DNA of 64,000 nt from Armatimonadota bacterium (GCA_020060775.1 JAGUZN010000398.1:2467-66466), one strand, 5' to 3'. Shown: positions 1 through 9,149, numbered from the stretch's first letter. Numbers and translations are program-made. Notes: a model not told the origin generated them from the letters alone.

Positions 1-449
1 TGACGGCGACCGTCAACAGTGTGGGCGCGGCCCTGGATGCTGTGAGCGGCTATCCTATGCCGGAAGGCGACCCGGTGCACAATGAAACGCGCGCACAAAC
101 GGCGCGGCTTGATATGCAGATGGAACTGCAGAACGTTCCCCCCGAGCGGATGCCTGAGGCGGTGCACCAGGCGGTGCGCGATGCCGTGCAGCAGGGTGAT
201 GCCGTGACGCTGAATCTTCTCAATGGCCCATGGTTGCGCCGATATTTGCGCTCGCGCGGCATGGGTGAAATGCAAATTCAATCCATTGCCGGCGTGGTTG
301 ATCGGGAACTGTTGCCGGCATTGCCGGATGCACAGCGGAAAGCGCGGTTGAAGCGCGAGAAGGTCAACACCACGCTTAACCATATTGGGCAATCATCGCA
401 GCAGTACGCGCGTCACAAACTCGAAGAGTTGCGCGGCATGAAAATTTAG
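1..449 (+). CDS. Hypothetical protein, 5'-truncated by the window start (frame open from position 3); part of the low-GC island
   Basis: The ORF-track ORF 21..449 continues in frame to the window edge with no stop. No recognisable motifs. Confidence 0.45.
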   Translation, partial: TATVNSVGAALDAVSGYPMPEGDPVHNETRAQTARLDMQMELQNVPPERMPEAVHQAVRDAVQQGDAVTLNLLNGPWLRRYLRSRGMGEMQIQSIAGVVDRELLPALPDAQRKARLKREKVNTTLNHIGQSSQQYARHKLEELRGMKI

Positions 450-528
450 CGGCTCGCGGCCACGAGATCAGCAAGGGGCGGGGCTGGCGAATCGACCCCC
501 ACCCCTCCCCCTTGCTGACATTTATAAC

Positions 529-858
529 ATGATCGGACAGTGTAGTTATGGCAATCGAGGTGATAAGGTGCTAACAACCATTCTAGAGCGCGAGCAGGAT
601 TTAATTGACGAGCTCGTGCACGGTGTAGAGCAGTGCCTGCATATGGTATTCAATAGCCCATGTTATAGCGTAGCAGAGAAGCGGCATAAAGCCTATGGTG
701 CAATTGATGAGATCGCGCGCAACATACAGGCAATCTATGCCAACAACGACAGTAACTATCCTGCAGACAGTGACAACATGGTGGCTGTGTCGGCAGCGAG
801 AGCGCTCGCGGATGCACGCATTGCTAGTCTGCGCGCTGGTGTGGCGTCTCGTCGGTAG
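529..858 (+). CDS. Hypothetical protein (island orphan, lower-GC)
   Basis: 109-aa ORF with the same orientation and tight spacing as the neighbouring island genes. About 48% GC. No known motifs. Confidence 0.35.
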   Translation: MIGQCSYGNRGDKVLTTILEREQDLIDELVHGVEQCLHMVFNSPCYSVAEKRHKAYGAIDEIARNIQAIYANNDSNYPADSDNMVAVSAARALADARIASLRAGVASRR

Positions 859-897
859 TCTATGGGCGAAAAGTGGGAGAGAGAGTAGTTTTTTGCT

Positions 898-2946
898 ATG
901 ACGGACATTGTACGAACCGCAAACGAATTTTATATTGGTGACCTACTCACCAATTACGCCTATCAAACGCAATTCGGCTATGCGATTACGGATATTCCTG
1001 CCGCCAAATTTGAAGAGAAATTGCGGTTTGATGAATATCAGAATGTAAATAACGTCTTCTATTTGCCTGCCATTAATGGCGTCGTATTGATGTTCGATTA
1101 CGAAGCGCAGAACATGCAATTGTCGCAGTTCACTGTTGCGCAAGGCGACTTCAATACTACCAAAATATCTGTTGAGCGCACGCCTGACTCAAATTATATT
1201 CACGCCTACAATGCGAGCGCAAACCATATTACGGATATTACTAGTAATTATTTATTGCCCGCCACTCCCTCATTTCATTTTCAATTCCATCGTATGCCCA
1301 TGACCCCCGCCAATATGGACCCGGCAGACCAAGAATGGCGCTTGTCATTTGGTGGGGGCTATACGTTAATGTGGAAGCGTATGCACGACGGCCCGGAATT
1401 GTACTATAACAATAAGCTTATATCGTCGTATATTGTGGACCTTGAGGATGCCGAAAAATACGCAACAGACTCGGCGTTGTATTGGAAAATATATAACCTT
1501 ATGGGTAGGCTATATATTATCTGTTCGGCTTTTCGTAACCCATGGATCATTGATGATATTGGCGAATTGCCCGCCGCCACATTCCGTGTACAGGGCGCGG
1601 GCGGGGAATATGCGTTTAATTTAACGCCGTATACTTTCGCCACAAGCGGCTATTTTGAAACCGATCTTGTCGAGCATATTTGGAATTATGATAGTGGCGA
1701 TTTAGTGGGAACAGTATTCCCAAGTTTGCCGAGCAATTGCACTGCAACGATCACCGTGGTGGAGGAAGTTGGTACTAGCAAACGCTATCGTGTGGCGTTG
1801 ACGGGGCCGGGCACCACCACGCCGGTTGTACAAGCATTTGAATATTTGTATATGCCGGAATTCTCCACGCCTTCGGCGGTCTGGAAAAATATTACCCCGT
1901 GGGTTTACAAGGACCAGGGCACCGAAACCATGCCCAAGGATTTATCCGCGCGGTCACTCTCAATCAATCTCGTACCAGACAAAATCATTAATGGGCAGAA
2001 TTTATGGGATTTCGTCGGCGGGCTGAACGGCCAATATGCCTTCAAATATAAAATTGGCTATCAATATGCGAATGGTAGTACGGATACCCAGGATAGGATG
2101 CAGGGCGTATTAACCGTTAACGATTACAAATTGGAAGTGAAAAAATTCGGAAGGCTCACATTGACTGCCGTGGATAAGTGGGAACGGTTGGCGGGCACTG
2201 CGCTTTTGTTCGCCCCGAATTTGACCGGCTTGCGCGTGGATGTGGCGATTGCGTTGATCGCCAAATGGGGCGGGATTCCAAGCACTCACATCGCGAGCGA
2301 AGCTATCAATATCTATATTGATGAGCCCGTCACGGATGCCACGCGCATTCCATGGCTTGCGGCGAACGGGACTAGTGCCGGGGATTTCATCCGCCAATTG
2401 GCGACCACGTATGGCGCTGTGGTGGAATTCGACGAGGACGGCGTTTTGCAAATCCGCAACGGCTACAATACAGCTTCGCAGGCGACATATCGATACGATG
2501 AGGGGGCGACACTGGATGAGGCGATTATCAGTGTCGAGGAGCACGAGGATACGCAGGGAGCAAAAAACATTGTCATGGTGGAGGGACAGACGGAAGGCGG
2601 GCGACCATTTTTTGCCACGGTCTACGATATTGAGAGTATTCAGACGAGTGGCGCGGGGGGCTTCCTTGGGCGTCCATCGGTGCATTACGAACGGAAGCCG
2701 GATTGTACGACGGCGGCGAGTGCCAGAGAAGCCGCTATTGCGATTTTCCGGGAAGTAAATCGCGGCTGGCCACGCCGGACAATACGCTCAAAAATTGGCG
2801 ATTTATGGAAAGCCTGGCCGAATCAATATATCACATTGATTAATACGGCTGGGCATGGCACGGAAGATGTATTGATCACAGAAATTACCGGCAAACTTGG
2901 GGCTGTGATTAACGAGCATACGGCAACCGGCGAAGTGCGGGGATAG
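898..2946 (+). CDS. Large orphan protein (682 aa), phage structural / tail- or host-specificity-like candidate
   Basis: Uninterrupted 2 kb ORF preceded by a GGGAGAGAGAG SD. Its GC content is much lower than the core genome. It sits in an island with an excisionase-family gene and an att-like tRNA fragment. No catalytic motifs recognised. Confidence 0.6.
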   Translation: MTDIVRTANEFYIGDLLTNYAYQTQFGYAITDIPAAKFEEKLRFDEYQNVNNVFYLPAINGVVLMFDYEAQNMQLSQFTVAQGDFNTTKISVERTPDSNYIHAYNASANHITDITSNYLLPATPSFHFQFHRMPMTPANMDPADQEWRLSFGGGYTLMWKRMHDGPELYYNNKLISSYIVDLEDAEKYATDSALYWKIYNLMGRLYIICSAFRNPWIIDDIGELPAATFRVQGAGGEYAFNLTPYTFATSGYFETDLVEHIWNYDSGDLVGTVFPSLPSNCTATITVVEEVGTSKRYRVALTGPGTTTPVVQAFEYLYMPEFSTPSAVWKNITPWVYKDQGTETMPKDLSARSLSINLVPDKIINGQNLWDFVGGLNGQYAFKYKIGYQYANGSTDTQDRMQGVLTVNDYKLEVKKFGRLTLTAVDKWERLAGTALLFAPNLTGLRVDVAIALIAKWGGIPSTHIASEAINIYIDEPVTDATRIPWLAANGTSAGDFIRQLATTYGAVVEFDEDGVLQIRNGYNTASQATYRYDEGATLDEAIISVEEHEDTQGAKNIVMVEGQTEGGRPFFATVYDIESIQTSGAGGFLGRPSVHYERKPDCTTAASAREAAIAIFREVNRGWPRRTIRSKIGDLWKAWPNQYITLINTAGHGTEDVLITEITGKLGAVINEHTATGEVRG

Positions 2947-3047
2947 TTGTTGCACAGTGGCGTCGTCGTCGGGGCGGGGCTGTCTACACCTCCAGCCTTT
3001 CGGTCTAGGTTGATCGACCCCGACGGCGGCCCTTACACCAGCAATAA

Positions 3048-3710
3048 ATGCCAATAGGGGATGGGAATATGCCACAATGCAAAACCTGCGTACACCCACA
3101 GCGGGAGGAGATCGAAAGCAAACTAGCATCCGGCATGAGCGCGGGCGCGGTGGCGCGGCAATATCCGGGGGTGACGCGCGCGCAGATCAAACATCATTAT
3201 GACGTACACGTCCGATTGATGCCTCCACCCGTGCAAACGACGGCGGCGAGCGAGCAGGATACTCCTGTTGCCGGCCTGGATGATTTACCCACCCCCTGCC
3301 CGGTATGCGTGCATCCCCGGCTGGAACTCATTGATGAATTATTGATAGCGGGATGCGGCCTTGTCGCGGTTGCTCAAGTCGCCGGTCGGGGCGTCACGGC
3401 GAAGCACCTGAGAAAACACCGGAGGGAGTGCCTGGCAGGTGAGCAGCCCCCGGTTGAAACAGTAAGTTATCACAAGAAGGCGCGCCTGCTGGCCGAGGTG
3501 ATCGAGCGGCTTGCCGGGCGCATGATCGAGCGCGAGCCCCGATTTTCTCTTTTCGATGCCATGGCGGCCTGTCGCCTGGCTGAGTCTGAATTACGCATAT
3601 TGGCGGTTGGGGAGGCGCGCGTTGGATACCCGCGGCGGCAGGATTTTCACCGGCAGGGAGGCGTGGTGTTGGGCGGGGATGACAGGTCATCGGTATATTC
3701 GATTTTCTAG
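3048..3710 (+). CDS. Duplicated CxxC zinc-ribbon + HTH-like module protein (putative DNA-binding regulator)
   Basis: Two internal repeats of about 45 aa. The first begins CKTCVHP and ends with a G-V-T-x-x-x-I-K-H-H stretch. The second begins CPVCVHP and ends with a G-V-T-x-x-x-L-R-K-H stretch. GC-rich, unlike its flanking genes. Confidence 0.5.
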   Translation: MPIGDGNMPQCKTCVHPQREEIESKLASGMSAGAVARQYPGVTRAQIKHHYDVHVRLMPPPVQTTAASEQDTPVAGLDDLPTPCPVCVHPRLELIDELLIAGCGLVAVAQVAGRGVTAKHLRKHRRECLAGEQPPVETVSYHKKARLLAEVIERLAGRMIEREPRFSLFDAMAACRLAESELRILAVGEARVGYPRRQDFHRQGGVVLGGDDRSSVYSIF

Positions 3711-3776
3711 GGGTTGACAAGGTATTTACGCTATGTTATGATACCTTTCGATAACTTATGTAAGCGAGAGGATGCC

Positions 3777-3956
3777 ATGTCAGACAACGACGTGATGACT
3801 TTTGAGGAGGCGATGAAGCTTCTCAAGGTGAGCAGCACCACACTCTACCGCATGGTAAACGACGGGAGAATACCGGCTCGTAAAATCGGGCGGCAATGGC
3901 GCTTCTCGCGCCGGGTGTTGATGGAGTGGCTAGAGAGTGGTGAAAGCCATGGGTAG
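3777..3956 (+). CDS. Excisionase-family helix-turn-helix DNA-binding protein (Xis/MerR-like, about 59 aa)
   Basis: Sequence MSDNDVMTFEEAMKLLKVSSTTLYRMVNDGRIPARKIGRQWRFSRRVLMEWL matches the excisionase/HTH_17 pattern (hydrophobic-S-x-x-T-hydrophobic-Y then G-x-hydrophobic-P-x-x-K-hydrophobic-G-x-x-W-R-F). The ORF-track TTG start at 3714 is probably too far upstream. Confidence 0.6.
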   Translation: MSDNDVMTFEEAMKLLKVSSTTLYRMVNDGRIPARKIGRQWRFSRRVLMEWLESGESHG

Positions 3957-4524
3957 TAGCTGTCCGCTCGATATGTCGCTAATCCCCGAGGTGTTCCGTG
4001 AAGGAGCGGAACAAGCATGGATGCAACGCGATGTCGCCCAAATACTATGCTACATTGACAACCTAGATTGCTTGGCCTTCGTGGTTGACAACCTTCGCTC
4101 CCTAAAAATAGCTGGCCTTTACGAAGAGGCACTACTAGACGCCTATTTTATTACCCGAGTGAATCACCACAGATGGGAGCTAGGTGCTTTACAAATGATA
4201 TTTGAGGTGGCAGACCGCAAGGTAATGCTCGGCCTTTGTGAAGACATTCCGACACCTCTACCCTGTACAATTTATCGTGGTGTATCCGGCAGGGGGCGCA
4301 ACCGACGGGTTAGAGGGTTGTCATGGACACTCGACTTTGAGCAAGCTAAGTGGTTTGCCACACGGTATAAAGAACTGCCTTCCCCTGCGGTGTATCAGTA
4401 CACTGTGAAGGATGATCGTTATATCTATGCATATAGCAATGATCGGCAAGAGCAGGAGGTGGTGTGTCTGTTGCCACGTCATGCGAAGCCAAAGTTGGTA
4501 TGGGGGACAGACTCGAAGAGATAA
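3937..4524 (+). CDS. Hypothetical protein (195 aa), AT-rich insert within the island
   Basis: ORF with about 48% GC flanked by about 60% GC ORFs. GTG start overlaps the excisionase stop. No confident family assignment. Confidence 0.45.
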   Translation: MVKAMGSSCPLDMSLIPEVFREGAEQAWMQRDVAQILCYIDNLDCLAFVVDNLRSLKIAGLYEEALLDAYFITRVNHHRWELGALQMIFEVADRKVMLGLCEDIPTPLPCTIYRGVSGRGRNRRVRGLSWTLDFEQAKWFATRYKELPSPAVYQYTVKDDRYIYAYSNDRQEQEVVCLLPRHAKPKLVWGTDSKR

Positions 4525-4604
4525 CCGAATAATACGCAGTAGGGGCAGGATGCTACCAACACCCCACCCCTGCGGCCACACTGACAACCAAAGGAGAAAA
4601 CAGC

Positions 4605-4907
4605 ATGACCGAGAACATTGTATCACGCACGAACCTGGACCGCGAACTCACGAACCGGCCCACAGCACCGGGCGACGAATGGCGGCGCGGCGTAGCCCTG
4701 GCGCTCACGGATGCACGGGATGAGATTCAAGACCTGATTAACATGGTCACACTTGAATCCACTGACCATGGTTCCGGCACGCGCGAGCACCCTGGGCGCA
4801 CGGACATTGGCGCATACTACAACGGGATAACCGTTGCCATCGGCCTGCTTGCCGAAGTGGCGAGCACGAAGTTTAATATTGTTGGGCCCCACAAGGGGAA
4901 TGACTAA
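4605..4907 (+). CDS. Hypothetical protein (100 aa)
   Basis: ATG preceded by an AAAGGAGAAAA SD at the right spacing. Co-directional island gene. Confidence 0.4.
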   Translation: MTENIVSRTNLDRELTNRPTAPGDEWRRGVALALTDARDEIQDLINMVTLESTDHGSGTREHPGRTDIGAYYNGITVAIGLLAEVASTKFNIVGPHKGND

Positions 4908-4957
4908 CGGCAATCCTGCCGCACGACCAAGGGGAGGGAGAATAGGACAAACTAGAG

Positions 4958-5263
4958 GTGACTAGTTGTATTACCAGTGAGCGCAGCGTCGTGTACGTGA
5001 TGCCTCCCCATATCGCGCGCCAATTCGATGCCCGTGTATTAGCGGATGAGGAATATTTCCAAACTCATGCTAATACATGGGCATTTTGTCGCCCGGTCGA
5101 ATTGTGCGACACCTGGCCCGCGTACCCCGTGGACCCGGAAGGCGTCATGGTGCGCGTTACGCAGTGGGCGGGCGGGCAATATCGGCGCGAGGTGTTCCGG
5201 CAAGGGGGCGGGGAGGTAGTCATGCGCCATATTGGTCATGGCGGGTGTTCTATGGTAGAGTGA
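4958..5263 (+). CDS. Hypothetical protein (101 aa)
   Basis: ORF following a GGGGAGGGAG SD. Start codon uncertain (GTG at 4958 or ATG about 5000). Confidence 0.35.
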   Translation: MTSCITSERSVVYVMPPHIARQFDARVLADEEYFQTHANTWAFCRPVELCDTWPAYPVDPEGVMVRVTQWAGGQYRREVFRQGGGEVVMRHIGHGGCSMVE

Positions 5264-5310
5264 CGCGGCAGGGATTCCCCTTCCCAAACTAGCGAAAGGT
5301 AGCCTATACC

Positions 5311-5490
5311 ATGCCGATTCAGTTTGCCTCAGACGAAGAGCGCGAGGATTTCTACCAGCGACAAATGCGCGTGATTCGACCATACGTAGATGAATTCATG
5401 GAAGATTTCCGCGCGGGCAAGGTGGATGAGAACTACCGGTTTTCCGAGCGAGAGCACGCGCAACCGAAACCGCCAACGCATGAGAAGTAG
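5311..5490 (+). CDS. Small hypothetical protein (59 aa, below the ORF-track cutoff)
   Basis: ATG at 5311 preceded by an AAAGGTAG SD. Encodes MPIQFASDEEREDFYQRQMRVIRPYVDEFMEDFRAGKVDENYRFSEREHAQPKPPTHEK and is co-directional with the island genes. Confidence 0.25.
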   Translation: MPIQFASDEEREDFYQRQMRVIRPYVDEFMEDFRAGKVDENYRFSEREHAQPKPPTHEK

Positions 5491-5539
5491 CCCCGGCGTG
5501 CGGTGGGTGAGCATTTAGCCCGCAGTGCTCCTAGCCCTC

Positions 5540-5568
5540 TTGACGCCTGTGTGTGCGTCTTGTAGAGT
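5540..5568 (+). promoter_or_regulatory. Sigma70-like promoter (TTGACG, 17 nt spacer, TAGAGT) reading into the repeat / tRNA-fragment region
   Basis: Hexamers with a 17-nt spacer read directly from the sequence. Confidence 0.3.
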
Positions 5569-5595
5569 AGCCCCGGAGGTTCGAGCGCGGCGAAA

Positions 5596-5693
5596 AATCG
5601 TTAGGTCTAAAGGGGTATCATCGACAATCGTTAGGTCTATTTGAGCGTGAAAATATGGTAGTGGTAGAGCAAACGGCTCATAATCGTTAGGTC
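5596..5693 (+). repeat. Three direct copies of AATCGTTAGGTC(T) (about 5596-5608, 5626-5638, 5682-5693); the third copy is the anticodon-stem/variable-loop segment of the tRNA fragment
   Basis: Exact 12-13 nt repeats spaced about 30 and 56 nt apart. Candidate integrase arm-type or duplicated core sites. Confidence 0.5.
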
Positions 5694-5721
5694 ACTGGTT
5701 CGAATCCAGTCGCTGCCACCA
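5660..5721 (+). tRNA. 3' fragment (D-loop to CCA) of an elongator-type tRNA-Met(CAU); no 5' acceptor strand or D-stem partner, so this is not a complete gene. Likely the attR core copy
   Basis: D-loop AGTGGTAGAGC. Anticodon arm AACGG-CTCATAA-TCGTT (U33, CAT, A37). Variable loop AGGTC. T-arm ACTGG-TTCGAAT-CCAGT. Acceptor 3' strand CGCTGCC-A-CCA. The complementary GGCAGCG is absent upstream. Confidence 0.55.
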
Positions 5722-5731
5722 CCCAGATTTT

Positions 5732-5764
5732 GCCCGGAGTCCGCGAGACTCCGGGCTTTTTATT
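5732..5764 (+). terminator. Rho-independent terminator (10-bp GC stem GCCCGGAGTC/GACTCCGGGC, 5-nt loop, TTTTTATT)
   Basis: Perfect inverted repeat followed by a T-run immediately after the tRNA fragment. Confidence 0.6.
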
Positions 5765-5785: not shown

Positions 5786-7507
5786 TTAGAGTTCGAGGAT
5801 GACAGGGATGACCATGGGACGGCGGCGCGTGCGTTCATACACAAACCGGTTGAGCGCGGTGCGCACGGCTGACTTGGCAGATTCCCAATCCGTGCTGCTG
5901 TCGACGCTCAGTTCACGCACAGTGTTCACGACCACCGTTTTCGCATCCTCAATAAGCGCTTCCGCTTCCTGTACGTAGACGAATCCCCGCGTAATGATAT
6001 CCGGACCGGCCACCACCTCGCCGGTTTGCGAGTCGATGCCGGCCACGGCGATGAGGATGCCATCCTGTGAGAGGTGTTTGCGGTCGCGCAGCACCACGGT
6101 GCCGATGTCCCCCACCCCCAGGCCATCGATCATCACGCGCCCGGCCTGCACCTGGCCAATGACCTGCGCGCCATCAGCGGTCATCTCCAGCACATCGCCG
6201 GAATGGAGTAAGTAGATGTGATCATCGGCATACCCCATGCTCTGCGCCAGATTGCGGAACTGTACGAGGTGTCGGAATTCGCCGTGCATGGGAATGAGGA
6301 ATTGCGGCGACGTGAGCGTGAGCATCATCTTCAACTCTTCTTCGTTCCCATGCCCCGACACGTGCACCTGATCGTGGCCCTGATAGATGACATTCGCGCC
6401 AGTGCGGAAGAGCTGGTTGATGGTGCGATACACAAGATCCTCATTCCCCGGGATCGGGGTGGCGGAAATGACCACGAGGTCGCCCTGACTGAGTTTGATG
6501 AACTTATGCTCGCCAGCTGACATCAGCCGCAACGCGGAGAGCGGTTCACCCTGGCTGCCGGTGGTGAGCACGGTGACCGCTTCAGGCGGATAGGATGCCA
6601 CCTGATCCGGCTCGATGAGGATATCCGGATAGGGAAGTTGGATGAACCCAAGCTGGCGTGCGACATCCATATTGCCGCGCATGCTGCGCCCGATCACACA
6701 GACACGGCGGTGGTTGCGCGCGGAAACATTCAGCACTTCCTGCATCCGGGCGATATTTGACGCAAAGCAGGCGACGATCACGCGTCCGGTAGCATCGGCA
6801 AATAATTCGTCGTAGCTTGCGGCCACTTCACGTTCAGACGGCACCCACCCGGCACGCTCGACATTAGTTACGTCGGTCATCAACGCCAGCACGCCGGTGG
6901 ACGCGGCATGCACGAGCTTATGCACCTCGGTGCGTTGCCCCAGCAGCGGTGTCTGATCGAACTTGAAATCGCCGGTGTGGACGACGCGTCCGGCCGGCGT
7001 GTCGATGATCATCCCCACCCCATCGGGAATGCTGTGCGTCACGCGGAAGAAAGCGATGGTGAACGGCCCCAACTCCAGTGTGGCATCGGGATCGATCTCA
7101 TGCAATTGCACCGGAGGGAGATACGGATGCTCGGCAAGCTTGTTGCGCACGAGTCCGAGTGTCAAACGCGTCCCCCACACCGGAAGATCCAGCTCATTGA
7201 GCACCCAGGGCAGCGCGCCGACGTGGTCTTCGTGACCATGGGTTAAGATGATGCCGTGCACGCGTTCCGCATTCTCGAGCAGAAACGTGATATCGGGGAT
7301 GACCAGGTCGATGCCCAGCATTTCCTGTTCGGGGAAGAGGAGTCCGCAGTCGATGACGATGATTTCACCGCCATACTCATACGCGAACATATTTTTCCCT
7401 ATTTCACCGATTCCCCCGAGTGGAATGAAGCGCAATGCCTCGGGATTCGTGGCAAAGGATGGTTTGGCATCCTGGGGCTCGACACCCTGACCAATCGGTT
7501 CTTCCAA
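5786..7507 (-). CDS. rnj: Ribonuclease J (metallo-beta-lactamase / beta-CASP family)
   Basis: HGHEDH zinc motif and beta-CASP region. Length and architecture are typical of RNase J. Confidence 0.9.
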   Translation of the reverse strand: MEEPIGQGVEPQDAKPSFATNPEALRFIPLGGIGEIGKNMFAYEYGGEIIVIDCGLLFPEQEMLGIDLVIPDITFLLENAERVHGIILTHGHEDHVGALPWVLNELDLPVWGTRLTLGLVRNKLAEHPYLPPVQLHEIDPDATLELGPFTIAFFRVTHSIPDGVGMIIDTPAGRVVHTGDFKFDQTPLLGQRTEVHKLVHAASTGVLALMTDVTNVERAGWVPSEREVAASYDELFADATGRVIVACFASNIARMQEVLNVSARNHRRVCVIGRSMRGNMDVARQLGFIQLPYPDILIEPDQVASYPPEAVTVLTTGSQGEPLSALRLMSAGEHKFIKLSQGDLVVISATPIPGNEDLVYRTINQLFRTGANVIYQGHDQVHVSGHGNEEELKMMLTLTSPQFLIPMHGEFRHLVQFRNLAQSMGYADDHIYLLHSGDVLEMTADGAQVIGQVQAGRVMIDGLGVGDIGTVVLRDRKHLSQDGILIAVAGIDSQTGEVVAGPDIITRGFVYVQEAEALIEDAKTVVVNTVRELSVDSSTDWESAKSAVRTALNRFVYERTRRRPMVIPVILEL

Positions 7508-7703: not shown

Positions 7704-9149
7704 ATGGCTGAATACGAACCGGTGATTGGATTTGAGATTCACGCTGAACTGGCGACACACTCAAAAATTTTTTGCGGATGCAGCACCGAGCCTGGTGCGC
7801 CGCCGAACACCCATACCTGCCCTATCTGCCTCGGGCTGCCCGGGGTGTTGCCCGTGTTGAATCGCACGGCGCTGGAGTACGGATTGAAGGTGGCGCTCGC
7901 CTGCCACTGTTCGGTGCCCAGCCCATCGATCTTCGAGCGGAAGAATTACTACTACCCCGACCTTCCGAAAAATTACCAGATTTCGCAAAAGCGTTCGCCC
8001 ATCGGTCTCGACGGCTGGTTTGAGTTCGAGGTGGACGGACAGCCAAAGCGTGTGAGTATTATCGACATTCACCTCGAGGAGGATGCCGGCAAACTGATTC
8101 ATCCGGAAGAACGCAGTGCGGCCGGGCAGAGCCTGGTGGATTTCAATCGGGCGGGTGTGCCGTTGCTGGAAATCGTCTCTGGCCCGGATTTACGCAGCAT
8201 CGCCGAGGCGGAAGCCTATATGGCAGGGATGCGGCAATTGCTGCTATATCTGGACGTCTCGCACGCACGTATGGAGCTGGGGCAAATCCGCTTTGAAGCG
8301 AACATTTCAGTGCGGCCCAAGGGATCGACCACCTTGGGCAAGCGCGTCGAGGTCAAGAATGTGAACTCGTTCCGCACAGTGACGCGGGCGATCGAATATG
8401 AGATCGACCGCCAGATCGAAGCCTATGAACAGGGTGAGCGCGTGCTGCAGGAAACGCGCTTGTGGGATGAGGCGCGCGGGATGACAGTGGCGATGCGCAG
8501 CAAAGAGGAATCGCATGACTATCGCTATTTCCCCGAGCCTGATCTGGTGCCCATGGTGTTCACCACGGAGTATCTGAACGGTTTGCTCGCGCAACAGCCA
8601 GAGTTGCCTGCTGCGCGCCGCACGCGATTTATCGAGCAGTTCGGATTGCCCGCATACGATGCGGCGATCCTGACCTCGGAGAAAGCTTTTGCCGACTTTA
8701 TCGATGCGGCGGTCGCATTGGGTGTTTCGCCGAAAGCCGTATCCAACTGGATGATGGGCGAGATGCTGCGCCTGTTGAATGAACGCGGCCTGGCGCCGGA
8801 AGCCATGCCGGTGCAACCGCGGCAATTGGTGGAACTCATCGCACTGGTTGAGGCTGGACGCATCAACACCACCCAGGCCAAGAAGGTGTTCGAAGAGATG
8901 TTCGAGACCGGGCGCGATGCGGAAGCGATCGTACAGGACCGCGGCTTTGCGCAGATCTCCGACACGTCCGCGCTGGAGGCGATTGTGGATGCTGTGCTTA
9001 CTGCCAATCCGGAGCCGGCAGCCCGTTATGCGGCGGGTGAGGACAAACCGTTAGGATTCCTGGTCGGCCAGGTCATGCGCGAATCACGCGGCCAGGCCAA
9101 TGCCCCGATGGTCAACGAGCTGTTACGCCGGCGTCTACGCGGCGAATAA
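7704..9149 (+). CDS. gatB: Asp-tRNA(Asn)/Glu-tRNA(Gln) amidotransferase subunit B
   Basis: N-terminus EPVIGFEIHAELATHSKIFCGC...CPICLGLPGVLP and a C-terminal GatB/YqeY-type domain. Confidence 0.95.
   Translation: MAEYEPVIGFEIHAELATHSKIFCGCSTEPGAPPNTHTCPICLGLPGVLPVLNRTALEYGLKVALACHCSVPSPSIFERKNYYYPDLPKNYQISQKRSPIGLDGWFEFEVDGQPKRVSIIDIHLEEDAGKLIHPEERSAAGQSLVDFNRAGVPLLEIVSGPDLRSIAEAEAYMAGMRQLLLYLDVSHARMELGQIRFEANISVRPKGSTTLGKRVEVKNVNSFRTVTRAIEYEIDRQIEAYEQGERVLQETRLWDEARGMTVAMRSKEESHDYRYFPEPDLVPMVFTTEYLNGLLAQQPELPAARRTRFIEQFGLPAYDAAILTSEKAFADFIDAAVALGVSPKAVSNWMMGEMLRLLNERGLAPEAMPVQPRQLVELIALVEAGRINTTQAKKVFEEMFETGRDAEAIVQDRGFAQISDTSALEAIVDAVLTANPEPAARYAAGEDKPLGFLVGQVMRESRGQANAPMVNELLRRRLRGE

Follow-up and report, generated by a model that had tools for sequence, protein, structure and literature searches.

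The window analysed here is a 64,000-nucleotide stretch from an Armatimonadota bacterium. It comes from a source contig of 85,837 bp, of which at most 21.8 kb lies beyond the 64-kb window. Nine co-directional ORFs on the plus strand, separated by short gaps, tile positions 3–5490 at its left end. These ORFs and one promoter-like site are as follows:

3–449, plus strand: ORF1, GC 0.594, without a family match, its frame open to the left window edge
529–858, plus strand: ORF2, 109 aa, without a family match
898–2946, plus strand: tail/baseplate hub protein, 682 aa (PHROG, PDB profile, AF2/Foldseek, BFVD and gene context)
3048–3710, plus strand: ORFan with two tandem CxxCVHP...HTH-like repeats (internal repeat)
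3714–3742, plus strand: sigma-70-like promoter read from the sequence, near-consensus TTGACA-17-TATGAT with TG
3777–3956, plus strand: excisionase-family HTH protein, listed as ORF 3714–3956 with TTG at 3714 (HTH_17, TIGR01764, PHROGs)
3937–4524, plus strand: phrog_4776 family protein (PHROG match; 15 homologues)
4605–4907, plus strand: ORF of 100 aa, without a match
4958–5263, plus strand: ORF of 101 aa, without a match
5311–5490, plus strand: ORF of 59 aa, without a match

The nine ORFs are closely packed and all intact: none is frameshifted or interrupted by a stop. As ORF1 runs open to the left end of the window, it may encode the C-terminal part of a longer protein, and position 21 is no more than a minimum start. 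No Phage_integrase match was obtained for any of the nine ORFs, and no capsid, portal, terminase or lysis genes were found in the visible 5.7 kb, although genes of these kinds may be located upstream. An earlier note on this DNA had described the block as holding only co-directional orphan ORFs. The ORFs are co-directional and most are orphans, but the hub (195 family representatives) and ORF 3937–4524 are not. The atypical, alternating GC content proposed in the same note was confirmed: positions 1–5659 have a GC of 0.535 and individual ORFs form a mosaic of 0.49–0.60, compared with 0.584 in the core. The note had also suggested tetranucleotide z-scores in sliding windows. In 2-kb windows starting at 1–4001, the tetranucleotide distance to the core gave z = 7.4, 10.5, 3.1, 3.1 and 4.6, whereas none of the 57 core windows exceeded 2.5.

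The 682-aa protein, which had been called phage-structural-like, is a tail hub of the gp27/Mu gp44 type. Among phage-structure HMMs it matches phrog_1887 ‘tail protein’ (E 2.5e-10), as do 16 of 53 members of its family, and one family member matches phrog_177 ‘baseplate hub’; the same check on ORF1 (21–449) gave no family match. Searched against the PDB, the family profile hits 3d37_A, ‘Tail protein, 43 kDa’, over residues 384–645. AlphaFold2 produced a model with pLDDT 93.1 and pTM 0.89, for which Foldseek returned a best E of 2e-15 against the PDB and TM scores of 0.72 to 3d37_A, 8fqc_C1 and 9rku_Af (phage/eCIS hubs). Over its full length, the model scored TM 0.70–0.74 to Caudovirales proteins in BFVD. 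The C-terminal ~370 aa adopt the gp27/Mu gp44/VgrG-type hub fold and resemble gp27, Mu gp44 (phage protein D) and VgrG (3d37, 3cdd, 8fqc_C1) at TM 0.65–0.72, with a profile match that is weak but significant (E 1.4e-5). The protein differs from that family in its extra ~300 N-terminal residues, a lectin/CBM-like beta-sandwich, and sequence identity is 11–15%. No Pfam or NCBIfam model recognises it, and no relatives were found in INPHARED or IMG/VR. Homologues of the hub sit in phage structural modules, beside fibre genes, an endolysin gene and a P22-type coat gene.

Downstream of the hub, the tandem CxxC/HTH protein noticed earlier does contain an internal CxxCVHP...HTH duplication (34% identity, BLASTP E 1e-7). 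Family models gave only weak HTH matches to this ORF (3048–3710), and a search of 5.8e9 proteins found no homologue except itself. We annotate its product as a putative DNA-binding regulator. The promoter-like site at 3714–3742 closely precedes the start codon that the excisionase-family gene probably uses, which is more likely to be the ATG at 3777, behind a GAGAGGA ribosome-binding site, than the TTG at 3714. The family assignment proposed for this gene held up well, with matches to HTH_17 (1.7e-19), to TIGR01764 ‘excise’ (56.7 bits, cutoff 28.8) and to excisionase PHROGs. Winged-helix domains of this excisionase type are also found in non-excisionase regulators (MAD1 and AlpA-like matches), and the role predicted for ORF 3777–3956 is that of a recombination directionality factor or a regulator. 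For ORF 3937–4524, the source's gene call is a 183-aa product starting at 3973. Its family has invariant YRG, SWT and RxExE motifs, and phrog_4776 homologues lie in the neighbourhood of phage replication/terminase genes and in an element that carries an integrase.

The ORFs are followed by a junction with the bacterial core:

5491–5659, plus strand: non-coding element-side arm of the junction (P arm of attR), assigned from sequence and without homology to relatives
5596–5609, plus strand: 14-mer AATCGTTAGGTCTA, copy 1 of an exact repeat
5626–5639, plus strand: 14-mer AATCGTTAGGTCTA, copy 2, 30 bp after copy 1
5660–5721, plus strand: tRNA(CAU) 3' fragment, the att identity block at attR (identity to the tRNAs of loci L085–L091)
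5732–5756, plus strand: intrinsic terminator of the original tRNA gene (10-bp stem with 8 GC pairs, T-run)
5786–7507, minus strand: RNase J, the first core gene right of the junction (Pfam RNase_J_b_CASP 4.8e-45, RNase_J_C 2e-33)

The fragment at 5660–5721 comprises the last 62 nt of a tRNA(CAU) gene, from D-loop A14 to CCA, and lacks positions 1–13 of the intact tRNA. The intact gene is 75 nt long in relatives and is present in all seven of the metagenomic loci that we compared (L085–L091). The fragment is identical to the L085 gene at 62/62 positions and to those of the other six loci (L086–L091) at 60/62 (96.8%). It has the same direct orientation as the target tRNA gene, which is the orientation used as a criterion by Islander. 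The match to the intact tRNA begins at 5660, and no homology to the relatives was found left of that position. ARAGORN called no tRNA at 5660–5721 and no tRNA gene in the whole 64-kb window, and no second copy of the fragment was found within it. The terminator at 5732–5756 is homologous to the one that follows the intact tRNA in L086 (86% over the 5660–5761 alignment). The right island boundary is fixed to the base, with 5659/5660 on the element side and 5721 as the end of the identity block, and the Rfam tRNA match at the junction marks a scar, not a gene.

A partial tRNA-Met copy with its own terminator had been reported at this position. The fragment is real, its coordinates are exact and the terminator is there, but “Met” is a call from the anticodon alone, as given by ARAGORN. 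The nearest annotated phage tRNAs are tRNA-Ile(CAU), at 87–92%, whereas among E. coli genes tRNA-Met comes closest (79%). Judged by these similarities, the isotype may be elongator Met or Ile2. Initiator identity was rejected because of the G1–C72 pair.

Comparison with relatives shows what the site looks like without the block. In L086 and L087, the intact tRNA is followed by a terminator and RNase J in the same orientation as in the window, and the window's RNase J shares 79% and 73% amino acid identity, respectively, with theirs. Core genes lie directly upstream of the intact tRNA in L085, L086, L088 and L091. They encode a DUF1361 protein, a metallophosphoesterase, ThiD and a methyltransferase, and none of the four is found in the window. 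None of the island ORFs, for which syntenic orthologs in related genomes would have counted against the earlier proposal, is present in these four loci or in L087. Since relatives have the intact tRNA beside RNase J and, upstream of it, core genes that the window lacks, the block is an insertion at the tRNA. In L089–L091, the intact tRNA is separated by 1.1 kb from a fragment to its right that begins at C13, and a 66-nt block is duplicated beside the intact gene. Their C13 and the window's A14 represent the same boundary. The 1.1-kb insert is an independent small element and a complete version of the architecture predicted for the window.

We conclude that positions 1–5721 are very probably the right-hand (attR) end of a tailed-phage-derived element integrated in the tRNA(CAU) gene beside RNase J. 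The displaced fragment, the empty site in relatives, the foreign composition, the hub and excisionase-family genes, the phage-linked phrog_4776 gene and the L089–L091 architecture all bear out the earlier reading of the block as the attR side of a tRNA-integrated element. On this reading, the tRNA sequence between position 14, in the D-loop, and CCA would also have been present in the element's attP. Site-specific recombination with the chromosomal tRNA gene, with strand exchange most likely in the anticodon loop that the identity block spans, would have rebuilt an intact tRNA at the left junction, outside the window, and left the original 3' 62 nt and the host terminator at the right junction. 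The tyrosine integrase gene would then be expected at the left junction, and both it and attL are predicted to lie upstream of the window.

Regenerated tDNA and a displaced fragment are known to mark the ends of islands (Hudson, Lau & Williams 2015, PMC4383910). Of 3919 Islander islands, 3760 show a 3' fragment and 2083 use sites centred on the anticodon (PMC4383910). The window resembles this anticodon-centred ‘A’ class (PMC4383910; Williams 2002) in its displaced, direct-orientation 3' tDNA fragment at the end, in an identity block that begins before the anticodon stem and continues to the 3' end, in cargo of foreign composition and in a site that is empty in relatives. It differs in that only one end is visible here, with the integrase and regenerated tDNA expected beyond the window, and in that the arm contains a 12-nt core segment in two additional, exact copies.

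Those copies are part of the 14-mer AATCGTTAGGTCTA, the first 12 nt of which equal tRNA positions 37–48. The part of the att core that each AATCGTTAGGTCTA copy repeats is its 3' half-site (anticodon stem and variable loop). The two copies lie in unrelated flanking sequence, and at copy 1 the similarity to the tRNA reaches further 5', over 20 nt (17/20). We suggest only tentatively, from this resemblance, that the recombinase domain reading the core might also use the copies as accessory binding sites; that they bind protein at all is putative. Such an arrangement would be comparable to DR1/DR2 of integron attI or the third FRT element. The lambda attR (P arm–core–B') also has short direct repeats in the element-side arm next to the core, and lambda, with its Xis/Int arm sites, likewise has an excisionase-family gene within the element. 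However, in lambda the arm-type and core-type sites have different sequences, whereas the window's repeats duplicate the 3' half-site of the core. Nor is the lambda site located in a tRNA gene, and the excisionase-like gene here lies near attR without a visible int beside it, unlike in lambda. If the suggestion is true, this would be an attP whose ‘arm’ sites copy a core half-site, and it would belong to a phage lineage without sequenced relatives.

It is quite conceivable, though short of an even chance, that the prophage has decayed and is defective, with its late genes, and possibly integrase and attL, deleted, and with its right end, the attR scar and some right-arm genes, left stranded as the block. 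An element of that kind would no longer be able to excise or form particles. Three of three phage loci examined (L081, L083 and L084) have the hub homologue followed by a 70–79 aa ORF, a 383–628 aa, large structural protein and then fibre or lysis/endolysin genes. The window's hub gene leads directly into regulator-like ORFs, the CxxC-HTH ORF coming next, and the hub is the only gene common to the block and those phages. The element may therefore be rearranged or defective, and this gene order suggests late-gene loss or rearrangement. The mosaic GC fits decay as well, as does the 1.1-kb remnant at the same tRNA site in L089–L091, which indicates that decay at this site occurs in the lineage. 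However, the intactness and tight packing of the nine ORFs and the undamaged att identity block argue against decay, gene orders vary among phages, and fibre and lysis genes could lie upstream. Loss of this kind is a variant of the main explanation and not an alternative to integration at the tRNA.

We regard it as unlikely that the insertion destroyed the tRNA without rebuilding it, leaving no intact left copy, either because the common core is short, as it is in tRNA-dependent lysogeny, or through a non-integrase insertion or rearrangement. The left junction lies beyond the window, the 64-kb window has no tRNA gene, and such systems exist: in tRNA-dependent lysogeny, the phage integrates at an attB overlapping a tRNA gene, as in the window, with a core of ~10 bp, does not rebuild the tRNA and carries a replacement tRNA (Guerrero-Bustamante & Hatfull 2024, PMC10865867). 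In contrast to that short core, the attR fragment here is 62 nt long and its A14 boundary matches the truly duplicated 66-nt block (C13) beside the intact tRNA in L089–L091, which means that the tRNA gene could be rebuilt by a block this long. The position of the boundary, 13 nt upstream of the anticodon stem, also fits an attP block that spans an anticodon-loop crossover site (PMC4383910), and the visible part of the element shows no phage tRNA.

There is little likelihood that the block is a non-viral contractile-injection or tailocin-type locus, or another island that borrowed a hub gene. The best PDB fold matches do include eCIS and T6SS VgrG hubs, and neither capsid nor terminase is visible in the window. 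However, sequence homologues of the hub adjoin an endolysin gene and a P22-type coat gene, its PHROG and BFVD matches are Caudovirales tail proteins, the junction is of the att type and the block encodes an excisionase-family protein.

Finally, 5657–5721 is most improbably a functional D-arm-less tRNA or tRNA-like RNA gene: the Rfam tRNA model scores 31.3 bits over its full length (gathering score 29), GGUAGUG pairs 7/7 with the 3' acceptor strand, a promoter-like site (5540–5568) and the terminator flank it and the fold z-score is -4.2, but ARAGORN rejects it, the 5' strand of the D stem is absent and the cloverleaf incomplete, homology to the intact tRNA starts only at 5660, the promoter match is 9/12 and 90 nt away, and the pseudo-acceptor is D-loop AGUG plus three unrelated bases (an estimated chance of roughly 1 in 30 given the tRNA's sequence), where the true acceptor strand in relatives is GGCAGCG.

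Integration at the tRNA(CAU) gene remains our preferred explanation. The junction is of an ordinary, well-understood genomic island kind that leaves current understanding unchallenged, and the main use of the result is in annotation. The previously unannotated family of the 682-aa protein can now be named as tail hubs, and the tRNA(CAU) gene adjoining RNase J emerges as a site of repeated integration in a bacterial lineage that is poorly sampled.

Nine ORFs, all on the plus strand, tile window positions 3–5490 with short gaps, and the reading frame of the first (ORF1) is open to the left edge of the window. The block they form (1–5659) has a GC content of 0.535, against 0.584 in the rest of the window, and individual ORFs range from 0.49 (the gene for a 682-aa protein at 898–2946, and 3937–4524) to 0.60 (21–449 and 3048–3710). 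In 2-kb windows starting at 1, 1001, 2001, 3001 and 4001, tetranucleotide distance to the core profile gave z = 7.4, 10.5, 3.1, 3.1 and 4.6, and none of the 57 core windows exceeded 2.5. These sliding-window values establish that the mosaic low-GC island described in an earlier note is real and ends where that note placed it. Just past the ORF1 stop codon, an inverted repeat at 468–518 (20-nt arms, 85% complementary, 11-nt loop) could act between ORF1 and ORF2 (529–858) as a terminator or as an operator. The right-hand boundary of the block is organized as follows.

5491–5659, non-coding stretch of 169 nt between the last island ORF and the tRNA-like sequence (element-side arm)
5732–5756, strong intrinsic terminator 3' of the tRNA piece (T-run; 10-bp stem containing 8 GC pairs)
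5786–7507, minus strand, RNase J (Pfam)
7704–9149, GatB (Pfam)

The gap from the terminator to the RNase J stop codon is just 30 nt. When the 44-nt 3' part of the tRNA piece was used to scan JGI metagenome contigs, we obtained seven loci (L085–L091), each with an intact 75-nt tRNA with anticodon CAU, GGCAGCGTAGCTCAG[C/T]GG[C/T]AGAGCAAACGGCTCATAATCGTTAGGTCACTGGTTCGAATCCAGTCGCTGCCACCA. Window 5660–5721 corresponds to the stretch between A14 of the D-loop and the terminal CCA, and is identical to the L085 tRNA at 62/62 positions and to the tRNAs of the other loci at 60/62. Homology to the intact tRNA loci begins at 5660; further left there is none. The window therefore holds a 3' tRNA fragment, with exactly the coordinates first proposed for it.

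ARAGORN found no tRNA anywhere within the 64-kb window, whereas the Rfam tRNA model scored 5657–5718 at 31.3 bits (gathering score 29). This "full-length" Rfam alignment is an artefact of a fortuitous 7-bp pseudo-acceptor stem, in which the D-loop AGUG and an unrelated GGU pair 7/7 (two G-U) with the 3' acceptor strand. In the intact tRNA the 5' acceptor strand reads GGCAGCG, and the window lacks the 5' half of the D stem. Annotation pipelines based on Rfam/Infernal could call this scar a tRNA or pseudo-tRNA. We considered whether 5657–5721 might be a tRNA complete except for a deleted D arm, since GGTAGTG is GGCAGCG with two transitions. We rejected it in favor of a fragment starting at A14 because 5660–5670 (AGTGGTAGAGC) matches the L085 D-loop exactly and because a second element, in L089, shares this boundary (C13 in L089–L091, one base off the A14 of the window).

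The fragment had been called tRNA-Met. The CAU anticodon agrees with this, and ARAGORN assigns Met from the anticodon alone, but the isotype is ambiguous: the closest annotated phage tRNAs are tRNA-Ile(CAU) (87–92%), while in E. coli the nearest gene codes for elongator tRNA-Met (79%). Matches of the whole-block DNA in INPHARED were only to phage tRNA genes, over 5660–5721. The G1–C72 pair rules out an initiator tRNA.

The related loci also show what the site looks like when it is empty. L086 has the intact tRNA, a homologous terminator and RNase J (79% amino acid identity) in that order, with the same relative orientation as in the window, and is 86% identical to window 5660–5761 (tRNA piece and terminator). 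L087 has the same arrangement (RNase J, 73%). An RHH-PIN toxin-antitoxin pair lies between the tRNA and RNase J in L086 (5670–6310) and L087 (648–1279); the window is without it. On the 5' side of the intact tRNA, L085, L086, L088 and L091 share a conserved core set consisting of a DUF1361 membrane protein, a metallophosphoesterase, ThiD and, on contigs that extend far enough, a methyltransferase. The window contains none of this set, and those four loci gave no match to any of the nine island ORFs. Orthologs of the island ORFs at syntenic positions in relatives, which the earlier note had named as evidence against an island, were thus sought and not found. With the core genes absent from the window and the island ORFs absent from the relatives, the block is an insertion that separates those core genes from the 3' part of the tRNA. 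This comparison uses metagenome loci found with the tRNA block, not the RNase J relatives in GTDB genomes, which have at most 53% identity among the matches listed and no tRNA adjoining RNase J.

Three of the loci (L089, L090 and L091) have a second, partial tRNA copy 1.1 kb downstream of the intact tRNA(CAU) (573–1757 in L089). The partial copy spans C13 to CCA plus two bases (GC), and the interval between it and the intact tRNA holds genes for an RHH antitoxin and a HicB-like protein. This is a small remnant element, bounded on the left by the intact tRNA and on the right by the displaced fragment. The architecture of a tRNA-integrated element predicted for the window is thus seen complete here rather than in the window itself. 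The remnant shows that the tRNA(CAU) gene is a recurrent integration site in this lineage, and that elements at the site carry an identity block from the D-loop to the 3' end.

The 682-aa protein matched phrog_1887, "tail protein" (E 2.5e-10). A word-indexed search found only three homologs, and a profile search of 1.84e9 representatives found a 195-member family, whose profile matched the Mu gp44-like 43-kDa tail protein 3d37_A in the PDB (E 1.4e-5). An initial AlphaFold (AF2) model built on 4 sequences was of low quality (pLDDT 52.8), and its fold matches were taken only as a lead; a second, from 53 sequences, reached pLDDT 93.1 and pTM 0.89. Foldseek searches of the PDB matched phage and contractile-injection-system baseplate hubs (best E 2e-15), with TM 0.72 to 3d37_A, 8fqc_C1 and 9rku_Af over ~370 columns, and the N-terminal ~300 residues resembled lectin/CBM66 beta-sandwiches. 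In BFVD, uncultured Caudovirales proteins matched over the full length at TM 0.70–0.74, and many matches were named "tail protein", "protein D" or "Mu gpP". Sequence homologs belong to phage late modules: in L081 the neighbors are a P22-type coat gene and a CBM-bearing fibre gene, and in L083 a Peptidase_M15 endolysin gene lies downstream. The protein, at first described only as phage-structural-like, is a tail hub protein.

Relatives of the element were found in neither INPHARED, where the hub protein had no match, nor IMG/VR, where searches for the hub (protein and alignment), the tRNA block and the paired 14-mers described below were all negative. The hub homologs in L081, L083 and L084 are followed by an overlapping ORF of 70–79 aa and then a protein of 383–628 aa (running off the contig end in L084), with fibre or lysis genes beyond this large structural protein. 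In the window, a gap of 100 bp separates the hub gene from an ORFan regulator, and regulator-like genes come directly 3'. Because of this difference from the homolog contexts, the late module looks truncated or rearranged, and the element may be defective or rearranged.

Two regulator-like genes expected from the initial reading were also recovered. ORF 3048–3710 carries two tandem CxxCVHP...HTH-like repeats and has no homolog besides itself. ORF 3714–3956 encodes an excisionase-family HTH protein (HTH_17, 1.7e-19; TIGR01764, 56.7 bits, cutoff 28.8). Its true start is probably ATG 3777, giving a 59-aa protein. A near-consensus sigma-70-type promoter (TTGACA-17-TATGAT, extended -10 TG) lies at 3714–3742, inside the listed start of this ORF. 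The sole match of the block to PADLOC defence models was the HTH of MAD1. ORF 3937–4524 (starting at 3973 in the source gene call) belongs to the phrog_4776 family, with 15 homologs in phage or satellite contexts (L092 and L094 among them); one homolog lies in an element terminating in an integrase gene fragment beside host genes. YRG, SWT and RxExE motifs are invariant across 14 homologs over ~60 residues and follow the R-S-E pattern of mono-ADP-ribosyltransferases. We did not adopt that identity, which comes from the motifs alone, with no Pfam or PDB sequence match. The remaining island ORFs, including 21–449, had no match in family searches such as PADLOC.

The element-side arm contains identical 14-mers (AATCGTTAGGTCTA) at 5596–5609 and 5626–5639, 30 bp apart, with unrelated flanks and spacers. 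The first 12 nt of each equal tRNA positions 37–48, the 3' half-site of the core (core copy 5682–5695), so that the window holds three exact 12-mers where 0.11 are expected. Around the first copy, similarity to the tRNA extends over 20 nt (17/20) and reaches the anticodon stem-loop. Scars of earlier integrations or a tandem duplication could be proposed as the origin of the 14-mers, but we disfavor both because the copies share an end base and two extra bases (TA) foreign to the tRNA, and their 16-nt spacers are unrelated. The 14-mers look like selected protein-binding sites, putatively for the integrase or the directionality factor, and may be accessory recombinase or excisionase sites.

The best-supported reading is the standard scheme of phage integration, in which we infer the integrase and attL. 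A temperate phage or derivative, with an attP carrying tRNA positions 14–76, would have integrated by recombination at the chromosomal tRNA(CAU) gene. The left junction, outside the window, would hold the rebuilt intact tRNA gene, and the integrase is expected there; the right junction would retain the original 3' 62 nt and the host terminator. The source contig measures 85,837 bp, which leaves 21.8 kb at most beyond the window. The crossover would most likely lie in the anticodon loop, as the entire anticodon stem-loop falls within the identity block. Regenerated tDNAs and displaced fragments delimit island ends in Islander: a 3' fragment is present in 3760 of its 3919 islands, and the sites are anticodon-centred in 2083 (PMC4383910). 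Use of the displaced tRNA fragment as an end marker for the block follows the principle formalised there. The interpretation offered in the earlier note is supported: a phage-derived island sits in a tRNA gene, and the block is its attR junction, an ordinary one of a well-known kind, here in a poorly sampled lineage.
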